From: Promethearchaeota archaeon
GTDB lineage: Archaea; Asgardarchaeota; Hermodarchaeia; Hermodarchaeales; Hermodarchaeaceae
Direction of reading: 5' to 3'
DNA length: 64,000 nucleotides
Assembly: GCA_048938385.1 (NCBI GenBank)
Contig: JBHLMG010000001.1
Coordinates: 1 to 64,000 of the forward strand
Part shown: positions 2,079 through 52,719 of the stretch, piece after piece
Layout: every line of letters begins with the position of its first letter
Numbering within the stretch: position 1 is the stretch's first letter
The notes under the pieces: model-generated
Databases searched by the model: none
What the model was told of the DNA's origin: nothing
Seen by the model: the letters and a program-made list of their open reading frames with translations, nothing else
Translations under genes and position numbers: made by a program

Positions 2079-3212
2079 TTGACCCAGTTAAAAACCACTC
2101 ATCTACACGATTGGCATATAACCCTTGGAGCAAAGATGGTACCCTTTGCGGGATTTCATTTGCCACTGTGGTATCAGGCTGCAGTACCTGAACATCTTGC
2201 TACCCGAAATGCAGCAGGGCTCTTTGATGTAACTCACATGGGCAGGGCAATGATTACTGGTCCTGAAGCAACTAATTATCTTGAGTATCTACTTCCCACC
2301 AGAGTTCAGCGGCTTGAAAAAGGAGCGGGAACCTATAGTGCCTTGTGCACTGAAGAAGGAGGAATCGTAGACGACCTTTTCTTGTTTCGTCTTGCTGAAC
2401 AGGAATACTATGTAGTCGTGAATGGTGCAAACCGCGTGAAAGATTTCGAATGGATGAATAGACACGCTAAAGACTTTGATGTATTGATAACTAATATCTC
2501 TGACCACACTCCGATGTTTGCTTTGCAAGGGCCTGTTGCTGTAAACATTCTTGACAAATTGACTGCTGACAATGTGAGTTCTGTTCCTCGGTTTAACGCT
2601 ATTCAAACTAAAATCGATGGTAATGAGATAATTGCTACCCGAAGTGGTTACACTGGTGAAGATGGTTTTGAAATTGCTCAGCTCAATGTCAAACTTAAAG
2701 AAAAGGAGAAAGCAGAAGCACTTTGGGAAATGATTATCGAAAACGGGAAAGAGAAAGGACTAGTTCCTGTAGGATTAGCAGCCCGTGATACGTTGCGGCT
2801 TGAAGCGGGTATGGTCTTATATGGTAATGATATCAATGAAGAGACCACGCCATTTCAAGCCCGTATTGGTTTTGTTGTACATTTAAAGAAAGACAAATTC
2901 ATTGGAAAAAAGGCGTTGGTAGCTGAGAAAAAAGAAAAGCCCCAAACTCTTCGCGTAGGATTAATTATGTTAGATAAAGGAATTCCTAGAACTGGAAACC
3001 CGATCTACGCTAAGGGAGAAATAATCGGTGAGATAACTAGTGGATCTATTTCACCGCTTCTCAAAAAGGGAGTTGGGTTGGGTTATGTTCAACGACCTTT
3101 TAGAAAAACAGAGACTTTGGTGCATATCGAAATTGGAAAAAAGATGCGTTGGGCAGAAATTTTCCACCCCAAAAAATTGCTTCCCCAGATAAAGAAACTG
3201 GCAGGTGGATAG
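2079..3212 (+). CDS. gcvT: Glycine cleavage system aminomethyltransferase T
   Basis: GLFDVTHMG, RSGYTGEDGFEI and GLAARDTLRLEAG motifs. Confidence 0.95.
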   Translation: MTQLKTTHLHDWHITLGAKMVPFAGFHLPLWYQAAVPEHLATRNAAGLFDVTHMGRAMITGPEATNYLEYLLPTRVQRLEKGAGTYSALCTEEGGIVDDLFLFRLAEQEYYVVVNGANRVKDFEWMNRHAKDFDVLITNISDHTPMFALQGPVAVNILDKLTADNVSSVPRFNAIQTKIDGNEIIATRSGYTGEDGFEIAQLNVKLKEKEKAEALWEMIIENGKEKGLVPVGLAARDTLRLEAGMVLYGNDINEETTPFQARIGFVVHLKKDKFIGKKALVAEKKEKPQTLRVGLIMLDKGIPRTGNPIYAKGEIIGEITSGSISPLLKKGVGLGYVQRPFRKTETLVHIEIGKKMRWAEIFHPKKLLPQIKKLAGG

Positions 3213-13124: not shown

Positions 13125-14429
13125 TCAAACAAAAGAGGACCCTTTAGTCCAAAGTTCGGTTGCTTGAATTCGTCCTGCTTCGGGACTATAAATTAGTCCT
13201 TGTTTCTCGAATAAGTCAAAATCTTCTAGAACACTTTCCCATGTCTTGTTTTGACTTTGAAGCCACGCTTCTATTTCATCAAGAGTACGGGCATCAGTTA
13301 AGAAGGAGAGGAGGGCTGTTTGAAAGTTGGTAAACTCTGCCCTAGCCCGTTTAACTTCCTTCTCTACAAACCGCTGTACATATTCAGAATCAATTTGATA
13401 CACTGAGAGTACTTTTTCAAAGCTGTATCCTTCGTTGATTAGCACTTCAGCACCCCTTATCGCATCTTGAAGACACCGAAGTAATAATTCAAGCATAATC
13501 CCGGGGTTTCCCCCCGAAAAATTATAAATTCCCTCAAGAGACTCTGCAGTAAATGGATGTAGAAGCTTCTTTGAGAGGTCAGAGTTTAAATTTATTTTTT
13601 CCTCGGTTTCGGGATGAAATTTGTCTAGTTCGCCTTTTAGATAAGCAAGCCGCCACAACATGACCCTCATTGCAGTGTCTTTCTTCATTCGCCGCATGTC
13701 ATAGATTTCTACAAACCGCCGTCGGATTGCAGATTTTGTCCCATGACCTAGAGTTTCACCAACAGATGACAATAGCTCTAGCGTTTTTATTGCACTCTCA
13801 CCTACACGAGTAATCACTGCAAGAGTTAGTACAATATACCGCCTACCATCACGGGTCTTGTCGTTTACCATTCTTAGGAGTGTGTCTACGATCCTCACTC
13901 GGTTATCAGGTCGTTGTCTTTCTAATTGCCTAAATTCATCTATCAGAAGAACGAAAGAAGTGCCGTTCTCTTCAGCGTCAGTGCGTAACGCTAACAACAG
14001 TCTTGATAACCGTTTTGCGATAGAACCGCTTCTAACTACTCGTACTCCAACTCTATCAAATAGGAACTCACCAACATTCTGCTCCCCTATACTGGCATGA
14101 ACGAGATCATCAACAAGCGCATCAGCAGAACTAATTCCCTCTATGTGAATTGCGCGAATATTGGGTAACCTATTCAATGATTGTTGGATCATTTCAAGAA
14201 ATGTTGTTTTTCCAGCACCCAGCGGACCAGATACGACTACGCTCGCTGTTTGATTACGGAGATAATTTATCGCGCGTTTAATTGCCAAAGCCTCTTCATT
14301 AGGTACAACATACAGATCAGCTGAATCAATACCAAACAATTCGATTCGTTCGTTTCTAAATCCCCATTTCGAAAGCATCTCTTTATCGAATTTTTGGGTA
14401 CGCTCAACTAATCGATCTAACTCGCTCAA
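13125..14429 (-). CDS. AAA+ P-loop ATPase (ExeA/AAA_22-like) with C-terminal wHTH
   Basis: Walker A GPLGAGKT, Walker B VLLIDE, SGGNPG motif. Confidence 0.8.
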   Translation of the reverse strand: MSELDRLVERTQKFDKEMLSKWGFRNERIELFGIDSADLYVVPNEEALAIKRAINYLRNQTASVVVSGPLGAGKTTFLEMIQQSLNRLPNIRAIHIEGISSADALVDDLVHASIGEQNVGEFLFDRVGVRVVRSGSIAKRLSRLLLALRTDAEENGTSFVLLIDEFRQLERQRPDNRVRIVDTLLRMVNDKTRDGRRYIVLTLAVITRVGESAIKTLELLSSVGETLGHGTKSAIRRRFVEIYDMRRMKKDTAMRVMLWRLAYLKGELDKFHPETEEKINLNSDLSKKLLHPFTAESLEGIYNFSGGNPGIMLELLLRCLQDAIRGAEVLINEGYSFEKVLSVYQIDSEYVQRFVEKEVKRARAEFTNFQTALLSFLTDARTLDEIEAWLQSQNKTWESVLEDFDLFEKQGLIYSPEAGRIQATELWTKGSSFV

Positions 14430-22866: not shown

Positions 22867-22964
22867 TGGCGCGGAGTAAGGGATTTGAACCCTTGCGACC
22901 ACGAAGGTCACTGGATAGCTCGTTCAAACTCGAGTCCAGCGCGTTACCGCTCTGCCAACTCCGC
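22867..22964 (-). tRNA. tRNA-Ser(CGA) with 12-nt intron (22917-22928) at 37/38
   Basis: Long variable arm, G73, encoded CCA; BHB helix CTCG/CGAG. Confidence 0.95.
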
Positions 22965-38034: not shown

Positions 38035-38526
38035 TTACCTCGAAAAAGCTAAGCTTACCGCTTCTTTTGATGTTTGTGCGATATGAAGGTCTGAATGGGG
38101 AAATAATCCACGGTGTTGAATTATCATATCTGTGACACCCCCTGTGCCTTTAAGTAAAATCAACCGCTTTTGTACAGCGATAGCAAAACCAATTTCACTT
38201 AAAGTTCCACCAGATCCTGCAATACTGATGATCGCATCACTTGAGATGATATTAAGGTAATTTCGGGCATAGCCAATTCCCGTAGCAATAGCAAAGTCAA
38301 CATAGCGGTTGGCTACGCTGGCATCGCTTTCAGGGAGAATTCCAATAGTAATTCCTTTTTCGCTTTTTGCACCCTTAGACGCTGCTTCCATTACCCCGTC
38401 TTTACCACCAGTAATTAGAACGGCTTTCTTCTTTGCTATTTCCTGTCCAACGCTTTCTGCAATCTGGAAGATCTTAGGTGAGATATTTCCGCTGCTCCCA
38501 ATTACCGCAATCCGCTGCATCATCAT
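38035..38526 (-). CDS. LOG/TIGR00725-family Rossmann protein
   Basis: TGGKDGVMEA, RNYLN and GSGGTLSEI motifs. Confidence 0.88.
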   Translation of the reverse strand: MMMQRIAVIGSSGNISPKIFQIAESVGQEIAKKKAVLITGGKDGVMEAASKGAKSEKGITIGILPESDASVANRYVDFAIATGIGYARNYLNIISSDAIISIAGSGGTLSEIGFAIAVQKRLILLKGTGGVTDMIIQHRGLFPHSDLHIAQTSKEAVSLAFSR

Positions 38527-38531
38527 CCCTT

Positions 38532-40635
38532 CTAAATTAATCCTCTTCGTTTTCGAATGTTAGAGCTAACACTTTGAAGACGGGATTCTGGTAAAATCTG
38601 CCATCGCGCAAACCTCGTTTGCCAATTCGCTCTTCCTGAGGTTTTCGATCGCAGAATATCCGCTAAATCAAACGACTCGCTCACAGGTAGCAAACCATTG
38701 ATCGTTACAAATACCCCCTTGTAATCAACATTCTCAACTTGTCCTCTTTTTGATATTACTACTTGGGTAACATCTTTCAGGTATTCGCTAGAAACAATGA
38801 CCTGTACTTCATAAATTGGTTCAAGAAGCGTCATACCCGCTTTTTCAAAGGCGTTAAAGATAGCATCCTTTACCATCGACATTAATTCGACTCGTCCTCT
38901 TTCTGCTACATTCTCACTTAACGCTAAATCAAGAATTCGAACGGTAGTTAATCCTACAGGTTCAGAACAAAAAGGCCCTCTTTCGAGTGCCCAAATTACT
39001 CCTTCAATAATTGAGTGTTTTGCTGACTCGGTTGCTTCTACATTTGTTGTAACTACCAGTCTGTTTCCTCGTTGATCCTTGTACCACTCGGTTTCTGTGG
39101 TCTGTTGTTGATTGCTCGGGTCTATGGATATGCGTATGTTGTTTTTACCATTCGGACTAGATGTTGGCTTTAGGGCTGATATTTTGTTCAAAGGGATTTC
39201 ACGGTACAAGACAATTGGATCGGAAGCTAAGACATCAACTCCCATTTTTTGAATATCTTTTAGTGTAATCTCCAAGTGTAAAAGACCCAGACCGGATAGA
39301 AGGTTTTCACCTGTTTGTTCGTTAATTGAAAAAGTTAGGTTCGGGTCACCCTTTGTTGTCAGTTCAAGAATGGATAGTAAGCGGGGCAGTTCTCTTGCAT
39401 GTTTCGGTTCGATGGCAATAGTGACGACAGGTTCGGTGATGTAGGTTATTTGTTCAAATGGTACCATACCCTCTGGAGGGTGTTGTCCTGTTATCGTATC
39501 TCCGGCTTGAACTTTTTCGATACCAATAAGACCGCAAATATTTCCTGCAGTTAATTGGGGAATAACCACTTGTCGTGAACCCATGAAAAGGGTAACGCGT
39601 TGAATTTGGTGCAATTCGCTTTCGGGTAGAATTTTAATTTGAGACCCTTTCTTAACGGAACCAGAGAATATGCGTCCGATTGCTATTAACCCATGTTTAG
39701 ATTCAGTGACAATTTTAGTTACTTCGATGATGAGTGGACCATCAGCACGGCATTCTCGGAGGACTGCACTGGCTGGGGATTCTGGGGGTCCTTTCCAAAT
39801 GTGTTGGGTTCGATATGGTTGCGCCTGCTTTGGTGAGGGAAGGCAGTCAATTATCATAGCAAGAATAGGGATGTGAATAGGAAGAAGTTCACTAAGAGAC
39901 TCAAACTGTTTATTTTGGTAATGTGTAATAATGTCTTGAAACCGAATATTGAGCTGTTTCATCTGTGAAACAGTGAAAGCCCATTTGTGGAGAGCTGAGC
40001 CAAAGGTCACCGAAGTGGACTCGGCGGATACAGTCCACTTTAATGGTGGTTCGCTTCCTAAGGCAGTTACAATTAGTTGGTTTACATCACGAATTATTTG
40101 TGTAAATTTTTCTTGAATTTGTGTCGCTGATAGTTTCAATTCGTTGATGAGTCGATCAATTTTGTTAATGAATAAAACTGGTTTTACACGCTCTTTAATA
40201 GCTAATCGAATCACGCTTTCTGTTTGAGCCATGACTCCTTCTACTGCGTCCACCACAACAATAGCTCCATCGATCGCGCGCATAGCTCGCGTAACTTTTC
40301 CACTAAAATCAACATGACCCGGAGTATCTACTAAGTTGACCACATACCGTTTCCCTTGGAATTCATGGAGGAGTGAAATGTTGGCAGATTTAATCGTAAT
40401 TGGGGCGGTCGTAAATCTCTACAGAACCGTTTCCCCTCCGCTGTTCCTCTTCAAGGTAATCTAATGCTCTTGCTTGTCCAACGAGGTTGGATGAAAGCAT
40501 TCCCGCATTAGCAAGGAGGGAGTCAGTGAGCGTCGTTTTGCCATGATCAATGTGTGCAATTATTCCAATGTTACGAATGAGGTCGGGAGTGGTCATTATT
40601 GCCTGTAATTCGTTAATTCGCTGATTCTGCGACAA
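38532..40635 (-). CDS. Elongation factor 2 paralog (aEF-2p), spliced: exon 1 40635-40431, exon 2 40399-38532, 690 aa
   Basis: AHIDHGKT in exon 1; RGITIKS only after intron removal; DTPGHVDF and NKID in exon 2; diphthamide His replaced (AERG). Confidence 0.9.
40400..40430 (-). other. 31-nt BHB-type intron in a protein-coding gene
   Basis: GGGG-AA^A-CGGT...ACCG-CCCC-AA^T; cuts after the 2nd bulge nucleotide restore GGA ATT ACG ATT. Confidence 0.9.
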
Positions 40636-40763
40636 GAGCGAATACTCTCCAACTAGGCTGCGTTTGTTAGGTTTATGGACGGGGTCTTAGTCTTGAACTA
40701 ATTATTGTTATTTCTGATGCTAAATAGTGTGTCGATGTGATTGGTTGTAATTCACAAGAAATG

Positions 40764-52521: not shown

Positions 52522-52607
52522 TTTATGTGACACTATTAGCAAGCTCCATAATTTGGAGAAGCTTTGCGTATAAAAACCAGCAAAAGTGATCAGATTCGTG
52601 AAAGAGG

Positions 52608-52719
52608 TGCGGGGGGTGGGATTCGAACCCACGAAGGTCTACACCACAGGAGCCTCAGTCCTGCCCCTTTAGTCAGATTTCATAACTGAAATCCTTAGAC
52701 CATGCTCGGGTACCCCCGC
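52608..52719 (-). tRNA. tRNA-Leu(GAG) with 27-nt D-loop intron (52669-52695)
   Basis: Anticodon arm CAGGA-CTGAGGC-TCCTG, long variable arm, BHB helix GGTC/GACT; 3' end reads A-CCT, so CCA is not fully encoded. Confidence 0.95.

Follow-up and report, generated by a model that had tools for sequence, protein, structure and literature searches.

A putative bulge-helix-bulge intron at switch I of the aEF-2p gene in an Asgard archaeon

How is a translational GTPase made from a gene whose reading frame breaks at switch I? The question is raised by the gene for an elongation factor 2 (EF-2) paralog, aEF-2p, on the minus strand of the 64,000-nucleotide (nt) stretch analysed here (the window; positions 1 to 64,000 of contig JBHLMG010000001.1, assembly GCA_048938385.1, a Promethearchaeota archaeon), where 31 nt interrupt the switch-I (G2) motif. 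An earlier note on this DNA had read the interruption as a tRNA-type, bulge-helix-bulge (BHB) intron in the mRNA of an EF-2 paralog, and that overall reading was supported by all sequence-level predictions. We put a probability of roughly 0.88 on the insert being a BHB intron of the HBh' class that is removed from the aEF-2p mRNA by the endonuclease EndA and the ligase RtcB. From its anatomy, conservation, covariation and selection, and from the presence of the enzymes, we infer cleavage and ligation. The genome of the window (G000) is a metagenome-assembled draft of 51 contigs that is 89.8 % complete.

Two head-to-tail open reading frames (ORFs) in different frames were observed at the locus, one of 81 aa with a TTG start (40390-40635, minus strand) and one of 603 aa (38532-40343, minus strand), and the minus strand from 40250 to 40700 matched the letters that had been quoted for it. 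The 31 nt that separate the 81-codon from the 603-codon ORF (40430..40400, minus strand) form a string unique in the gene. When they were excised, a 2073-nt frame of 690 aa resulted that reads EEQRRGITIKSANISL and has its sole stop at the end; the excision to RRGITIKS and the 690-aa frame were thereby reproduced as the earlier note had given them, and the ORF list agreed with its statement that unspliced RNA is limited to 81 aa. The restored protein runs ...LDYLEEEQRRG-ITIKSANISLLHEF...DTPGHVDF and retains the G motifs AHIDHGKTT, RGITIK and DTPGH. Matches to the Pfam profile GTP_EFTU were divided between the pieces (profile 3-54 in the first, 71-187 in the second) and were followed by GTP_EFTU_D2, EFG_III, EFG_IV (weak, 25.5 bits) and EFG_C, the five-domain architecture of EF-2 being present across both pieces. 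Since the GTP_EFTU profile is shared between the two, it is a single domain that is interrupted, and switch I is the exact place of the break. The parts of the gene are as follows.

40431..40635, minus strand: exon 1 of aEF-2p, with the TTG start at 40635-40633 and the G1/P-loop, ending in EEQRRG plus the first base (A) of an Ile codon (ORF list; GTP_EFTU 3-54).
40400..40430, minus strand: putative intron of 31 nt, phase 1, splitting the Ile codon A/TT; its removal mends frame and motif, and an insert occupies the same site in 15 orthologous loci.
38532..40399, minus strand: exon 2 of aEF-2p, with switch I (ITIKS), G3-G5, domains II-V and the stop at 38532-38534 (Pfam).

One explanation would be an assembly or sequencing artefact, the 31 nt being absent from the real DNA. 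The draft, metagenome-assembled state of the genome speaks for it, and nothing further does. The earlier note had named such an artefact as a way to fail, and when it was looked for the 31 nt were retained in DNA from two studies: Logan contigs assembled independently for a second sample of the same study carried them with no indel, and a mangrove metagenome contig from a different study carried them with 12 substitutions in 356 nt and no gaps. One of the mangrove variants, 40410 C>T, turns a U.G of the inner stem into U-A. The insert was also found in assemblies of at least 14 other species, and we regard the chance of an artefact as negligible. A 107-nt 'joint' in contig X2 proved to be another organism's conserved GTPase stretch and was disregarded.

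Orthologs were collected by a six-frame search of 40 related genomes. Those of the same genus (59-68 % identity) had open frames of just 611-669 aa (628 in the window), and the more distant homologs were open over 700-750 aa. Each of the ten complete same-genus loci carried an insert at the identical site, between EEQRRG and ITIKS; its length was 31 nt in nine of them and 30 nt, in frame and with a TGA, in the tenth (G014). Four further orthologs on public contigs, three at 53-55 % identity and one labelled Hermodarchaeota at 75 %, had the same 31-nt insert, the same calling as a mini-ORF plus a long ORF, and the same neighbour genes, so that a 30/31-nt insert was present at the same site in all 15 orthologous loci inspected as DNA. 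About 50 public ortholog clusters (53-100 % identity; NCBI, JGI, ENA, Logan) were all 583-653 aa, truncated at the 5' end and annotated as "GTP-binding protein" or "elongation factor 2", and full-length proteins of 733-736 aa appeared in the protein database only at 44 % identity or less. A search of genome contigs with a single protein query confirmed no relative, and one with an alignment query was saturated by universal GTPase motifs and returned unrelated EF-2/EF-G loci.

The break of the unspliced frame after 81 codons is also what would be seen in a pseudogene, a decaying copy of aEF-2p with a random 31-nt insertion. Decay in exon 2, which the earlier note had proposed to recognise by a dN/dS near 1, was looked for, and values of 0.08-0.15 (Nei-Gojobori) were obtained instead. 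For exon 1 (55 codons) the closest pairs gave dN of 0-0.024 against dS of 0.11-0.38 by the same method. Both exons are therefore translated and constrained by purifying selection. No further stops occur in the 690 codons, the gene is the only aEF-2p copy in the genome, and the insert has been retained with compensatory changes in at least 15 species, all of which makes a pseudogene extremely improbable.

The insert itself has the anatomy of an EndA substrate. In the minimum-energy fold of 40385-40460 (minus strand) GGGG and CCCC were paired to form a central helix (H), AAA was bulged and the inner stem was formed; RNAalifold, run on the orthologs with no structure supplied, placed the central helix, the 3-nt bulge and the stem inside it in the same way. 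The 4-bp helix, 3-nt bulges and inner stem described in the earlier note are thus confirmed by two foldings. The bulges, AAA (invariant) and AAU or AGU, lie on opposite strands exactly 4 bp apart, and the inner helix (h') comprises 4-5 pairs, to which a distal stem is added; five of its eight pairs show compensatory changes. The motif belongs to the HBh' class, in which four central pairs and an inner helix are present and the outer exon-exon helix (h) is missing. Its elements, with alignment pairs numbered by column, are these.

40433..40436, minus strand: 5' strand of the central helix H (GGGG), made of the exon 1 Arg and Gly codons; minimum-energy fold, pairs 17-51 to 20-48.
40430..40432, minus strand: bulge 1 (AAA), invariant among orthologs, with the predicted 5' cut between 40431 and 40430.
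40426..40429, minus strand: 5' arm of the inner helix h' (CGGU), pairs 24-47 to 27-44, retained with compensatory changes.
40406..40409, minus strand: 3' arm of the inner helix h' (ACCG), the same pairs 24-47 to 27-44.
40402..40405, minus strand: 3' strand of the central helix H (CCCC), intronic; CCCC, CCCU, CCUC or CCUU facing GGGG or GAGG.
40399..40401, minus strand: bulge 2 (AAU), with the predicted 3' cut between 40400 and 40399.

The motif had been called a relaxed BHB with a weak outer helix; the outer helix is indeed essentially missing, but the label does not hold, HBh' being scored as canonical and not as relaxed in recent work. A cut after the second nucleotide of each bulge puts the junction within the Ile codon. 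In most species there is an A on both sides and the exact position of the cut is ambiguous. Where the second bulge is AGU (G002, L117 and the g2 genome G016), only a cut after base 2 yields GITIK, and a cut one base earlier gives GVTIK, with Val where Ile is otherwise invariant. For this gene the proposed rule of cutting after the second nucleotide therefore stands, the AGU-bulge orthologs keeping GITIK in no other way.

Covariation was assessed on a structure alignment of 11 sequences, with pairs counted on the stated structure. The central helix took the forms GGGG/CCCC, GGGG/CCCU, GAGG/CCUC or GAGG/CCUU and was 100 % paired; pair 18-50 was A-U in seven sequences and G-C in four, and pair 1 was G-C or G.U. 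The A/G switch is a synonymous third position of the exon 1 Arg codon, mirrored by U/C in the intron. The four divergent orthologs likewise keep H paired. Overall, 93 % of cells were paired, compared with 30-46 % when the 3' partners were slid by 1-3 columns; both sides had changed in 6 of 12 pairs, and 0 of 500 shuffles reached the covariation score or the paired fraction. The intron interior differed between species at a p-distance of 0.45 with the helices kept, and no variation was seen in the AAA bulge, in the first inner pair or in GCC on the 3' side. A conserved BHB with a variable interior, which the earlier note had suggested looking for among orthologous aEF-2p loci, is what the 15 loci and their covarying helices present.

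These data also bear on whether the gene is simply split, an 81-aa P-loop fragment and a remainder of about 600 aa being translated separately and assembling, with the 31 nt as an intercistronic spacer. Gene callers in all public sources do call two ORFs, and a GTG lies 19 codons into exon 2. The ITIKSANISLLH codons, however, precede any start codon of the second ORF, and yet their protein sequence is invariant while third positions vary; were translation to begin downstream, the essential switch-I Thr would be lost. A spacer would have no need of a covarying helix that includes exon codons, nor of a length fixed at 30/31 nt across 53-100 % identity. Conserved codons with no start upstream of them, together with the covarying helix, in effect exclude a separately initiated second polypeptide, and we judge the split-gene explanation very unlikely.

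Ribosomes might instead bypass the 31 nt or shift frame, with no splicing. Phage T4 gene 60 is a ribosome bypass system, and the locus bears a superficial likeness to it, with a stable hairpin after a GGA codon and a stop soon downstream. Such recoding is highly improbable. The take-off and landing codons mismatch in 11 of 11 orthologs (GGA against CCA, UCA, UUA or CUA); in one ortholog the insert is 30 nt long, stays in frame and contains a TGA, so that no single frameshift rule suits all. A 4-bp helix with 3-nt bulges is EndA substrate geometry, common to the tRNA, cbf5 and dnaG inserts of this genome, and BHB geometry predicts the exact junction residue in the AGU-bulge orthologs. A group I or group II self-splicing intron was rejected as well, the insert being only 31 nt and the window having no Rfam match beyond two tRNAs.

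The distribution of the element was examined in 400 Asgard genomes with a junction-specific pattern that combined the 5' end of the intron, the 3' strand of H, the bulge and the ITIK codons. It matched 13 genomes, namely G000, 11 of 14 other congeners and one of four of the sister genus, all in one family (f1); no match was obtained in the remaining genomes (about 380), and a reversed-pattern control gave none. Three congeners were unmatched, one with its locus cut by a contig end (G008) and two with no assembled aEF-2p (G004, G010). The simplest history would be one gain in the ancestor of this Asgard family, whose members are labelled Hermod-, Thor- or Promethearchaeota, followed by vertical inheritance.

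The enzymes that splicing would call for are encoded in the genome. Two ORFs with the EndA domain PF01974 (107 and 67 bits, at about 190.4 kb and 325.0 kb) and a single RtcB (579 bits, at about 205-206 kb) were found, all on contig C23, and two EndA-domain ORFs are the pattern that an alpha/beta heterotetramer would be expected to leave. Asgard EndA is described as an (alpha-beta)2 enzyme with an L1 loop that confers broad substrate specificity (PMC5829648). We propose that in the pre-mRNA a 4-bp central helix arises between the exon 1 Arg-Gly codons (GGGG) and the four intron bases that directly precede the 3' bulge (CCCC), flanked by the AAA bulge and the intron hairpin on one side and the AAU bulge on the other. 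An (alpha-beta)2-type EndA would cut after the second base of each bulge, and RtcB would join the exons as GGA A + TT ACG, restoring R-G-I-T-I-K and the frame; the predicted spliced junction is ...GGGGAA joined to TTACGATT.... RtcB would probably also circularise the excised intron. With no splicing, the 81-aa fragment alone would be made.

Several observations weigh against the proposed intron. No spliced read, circular intron or junction peptide was found, and a search for RNA runs with the locus listed none, a blank that speaks neither for nor against splicing. An outer helix between the exons was not predicted by RNAalifold on the ortholog alignment, and bulge 2 is closed by H on one side only; with that helix absent, cleavage depends on a broad-specificity endonuclease, an activity that is predicted here. 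The single-sequence fold energy was ordinary relative to shuffles (z = -0.56). A loose BHB plus ORF-joining motif occurred 20270 times genome-wide and 20066 times in a scrambled-pairing decoy. With fold z-score and motif frequency at chance level, the significance of the motif comes from the comparative data.

The interrupted gene is, by its sequence features, the aEF-2p of Narrowe et al. 2018 (PMC6143161), a paralog described from Asgard archaea and Korarchaeota that lack dph genes, with the diphthamide loop lost and an R702T variant in the bona fide aEF-2 of paralog-bearing Asgard archaea. The likeness extends to each of these traits. The G motifs are kept; there is no HxDxxHRG, the aligned site reading ...NVAERG... 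(AERG); and Dph2 (PF01866) was not found in the 89.8 %-complete genome. A second EF-2 homolog in G000, on contig C16, is 33-36 % identical and has HEDPAHTKGG as its domain IV loop, an R702T-type variant, leaving the interrupted gene as the sole aEF-2p copy. Two differences were noted: the paper makes no mention of introns and lists some sequences as partial, and annotations in the present family consistently cut the gene short at its 5' end and call it a GTP-binding protein. As a separate observation, the bona fide aEF-2 (G000:C16:9300-11261, minus strand) lies in an open frame of 802 aa that extends about 50 aa past the usual C-terminal end; compared with aEF-2p, its domains II and IV contain insertions.

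The TTG at 40633-40635 (minus strand) is the apparent start of aEF-2p, with ATG at the equivalent codon in orthologs L011 and L014, and the N-terminal extension is conserved, its segment xQRxxEL..LM lying upstream of an internal Met that gene callers might favour. Directly after aEF-2p stands a SLOG/LDcluster4-family gene (38035-38526, minus strand). All four divergent loci (L117-L120) kept the pairing of aEF-2p with SLOG and, after it, a small ORF of opposite orientation; a radical-SAM gene came next in three of them, the fourth locus ending there. The conserved neighbourhood suggests a functional link between aEF-2p and the SLOG nucleotide-binding protein.

Other aEF-2p homologs carry insertions of their own. 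A 29-nt BHB-type insert after DTPGHV (G3) was observed in homologs from another Asgard genus (G024 and G034), and a P-loop (G1) insert in a third lineage (G036). The cut rule holds for both of these unrelated inserts.

L020 (G024:C1), ~2709-2733, minus strand: G3 insert; H ACGU/GCGU, bulges AGA and AAA, 9-bp inner stem; the cut rule gives HVDF.
L021 (G034:C4), ~1479-1507: G3 insert of the same 29-nt type as in L020.
L027 (G036:C272), ~1296-1329: P-loop (G1) insert of 31 nt; H AUGG/CCAU, bulges AAA and AUA, stem CAUAUAA/UUAUAUG; DHGKTTLS (HGKTT) results from the cut rule.

Two further homologs, L022 (G020:C29) and L025 (G031:C137), contain an intein in the P-loop (DHGK/C...VHN/TTL) within open frames of 919 and 924 aa, and protein P0018 (904 aa, 62 % identical to the window protein) has intein/Hint Pfam domains. 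One gene family thus appears to host both RNA-level and protein-level insertions at invariant motifs. Inteins resemble the putative introns as selfish insertions at an invariant GTPase motif (the P-loop in L022 and L025; P0018) and differ in being removed from the protein and not from the RNA.

The earlier note had stated that one cut rule restores nine tRNA introns in the window, a claim that was checked in part. In tRNA-Ser(CGA) (22867-22964, minus strand) a 12-nt intron of the hBH type, with H CUCG/CGAG and an outer helix of 7 bp, fits the same rule. ARAGORN found four tRNAs, two of them with introns, and the single-intron model that it placed on tRNA-Ser(UGA) (52606-52719, minus strand, 114 nt) fits no BHB; this gene, which may hold more than one intron, is missed by Rfam, whose matches in the window are two tRNAs. 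Most interrupted tRNAs escape ARAGORN, run with default settings, and Rfam.

The genome was scanned for BHB motifs that join open frames, the earlier note having proposed such a scan of apparent frameshifts, and cbf5, dnaG and a CoA-transferase gene were found. Adding hexamer coding potential to the loose motif gave 4137 hits against 3929 for the decoy, with no enrichment because nearly every co-directional gene boundary gets a chance match. A strict filter (bulges beginning with A, 4 bp or more in h', two or more G-C pairs in H, length 20-45 nt) gave 12 hits against 3 decoys, with aEF-2p and the following three genes among them.

G000:C4:12651-12691, plus strand: cbf5, 41-nt BHB-type insert between GIINLD and KPPGPTSH; DKCLD in piece 1, TruB_N, TruB_C_2 and PUA in piece 2.
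G000:C23:180501-180528, minus strand: dnaG, 28-nt BHB-type insert in FGQTEGL/LGEDL; archaeal DnaG equivalog (NCBIfam) 1-30 in piece 1 and 32-419 in piece 2.
G000:C25:75791-75825, plus strand: CoA-transferase, 35-nt BHB-type insert; CoA_trans 5-44 in piece 1 and 78-217 in piece 2.

Profile continuity across the junction confirms all three as split genes; the dnaG insert has H GCCU/GGGC and a 9-bp inner stem. Two other candidates were adjacent genes and not split ones (C48:55394-55423, cdhB/cdhC; C37:57660-57703, GH35 and a gene of unknown function). A 28-nt candidate in the window itself (14383-14410, minus strand; H AUCG/CGAU, bulges AUU and AAA) would link a 51-codon frame to a 418-aa AAA/ATPase_2 ORF; its upstream piece has no family match and it is probably due to chance. 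The scan, which was motif-first, is a census that is neither complete nor clean.

The aEF-2p intron would then be one of several EndA-type introns that have spread into mRNAs of this lineage. We think it somewhat probable that such introns moved beyond tRNAs into protein genes (aEF-2p, cbf5, dnaG, CoA-transferase and possibly more), with independent gains in aEF-2p at G1, G2 and G3 in three lineages and an intein in a fourth. The earlier note had also raised the idea that the intron ties aEF-2p output to splicing capacity. This found no specific support: like introns in cbf5, dnaG and the CoA-transferase gene weaken a regulatory link specific to the factor, and a lineage-wide spread into mRNAs fits better than a factor-specific device. 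That splicing gates aEF-2p production is accordingly kept as a weaker further reading.

Among known systems the closest is the cbf5 intron of Crenarchaeota (Watanabe et al. 2002; Yokobori et al. 2009, PMC2738675), likewise a short EndA-type BHB intron in a coding region whose removal restores the frame, in a lineage with a hetero-oligomeric EndA of broad specificity. Here the host is switch I of aEF-2p and the phylum is Asgard, the cbf5 intron of G000 lies at another position, and splicing, which was demonstrated experimentally for Crenarchaeota, is predicted. Asgard tRNA introns (bioRxiv 10.64898/2026.10.13.758758; PMC5829648) share the HBh' class, the strand topology in which the 5' strand of H comes from the exon, the cut rule and, it may be presumed, the enzymes; the aEF-2p substrate differs as an mRNA with no tRNA body, in which the exon strand of H is constrained by codons. 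Both papers are confined to tRNA genes, and the 2026 preprint on Asgard tRNA introns (bioRxiv 10.64898/2026.10.13.758758) counts HBh' as canonical. The HVO_1309 intron of Haloferax volcanii (PMC7714728) is again in an mRNA processed by the tRNA splicing endonuclease, but it lies in the 5' untranslated region (5' UTR) and leaves the frame uninterrupted, in a euryarchaeon with an alpha'2 EndA and a strict BHB. That paper names cbf5 as the only other example of an archaeal mRNA BHB intron (PMC7714728).

A literature search, with most subscription journals outside its coverage, returned only cbf5 (PMC2738675) and the HVO_1309 5' UTR (PMC7714728) as archaeal mRNA BHB introns. Within the same scope no published BHB intron was found for any protein-coding gene of Asgard archaea, which does not prove absence; the earlier remark that no description in an Asgard EF-2 gene was known agrees with this search. 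The element therefore belongs to a known class, the EndA-type intron in archaeal mRNA, and what is new is the host gene, the phylum, the multiplicity in one genome and the recurrent gains at GTPase motifs. A more distant parallel is the splicing of HAC1/XBP1 mRNA, a protein-only process in which Ire1 cuts at stem-loop bulges and a tRNA ligase (RtcB in metazoa) joins the ends. It too is spliceosome-independent, ends in ligation by a tRNA ligase and changes the frame; the nuclease there is Ire1 and not EndA/TSEN, and the event is a regulated stress switch.

The cbf5 intron of Crenarchaeota was for over twenty years the sole archaeal BHB intron known from a coding region. The present locus adds an Asgard translational GTPase, with comparative evidence about as strong as sequence alone allows, and it belongs to a wider pattern in which one genome has several such mRNAs and one gene family several independent sites. 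In public annotations such genes are systematically mis-called as "GTP-binding proteins" that are 5'-truncated and have no G1/G2, and for aEF-2p, cbf5 and dnaG of Asgard genomes both phylogenies and presence/absence tables can be skewed as a result. The locus makes testable both the reach of protein-catalysed mRNA splicing in the closest archaeal relatives of eukaryotes and the mode of intron gain. If the wider spread of introns into protein genes is true, close prokaryotic relatives of eukaryotes would routinely splice mRNAs by protein catalysis and would have gained introns repeatedly at conserved sites.

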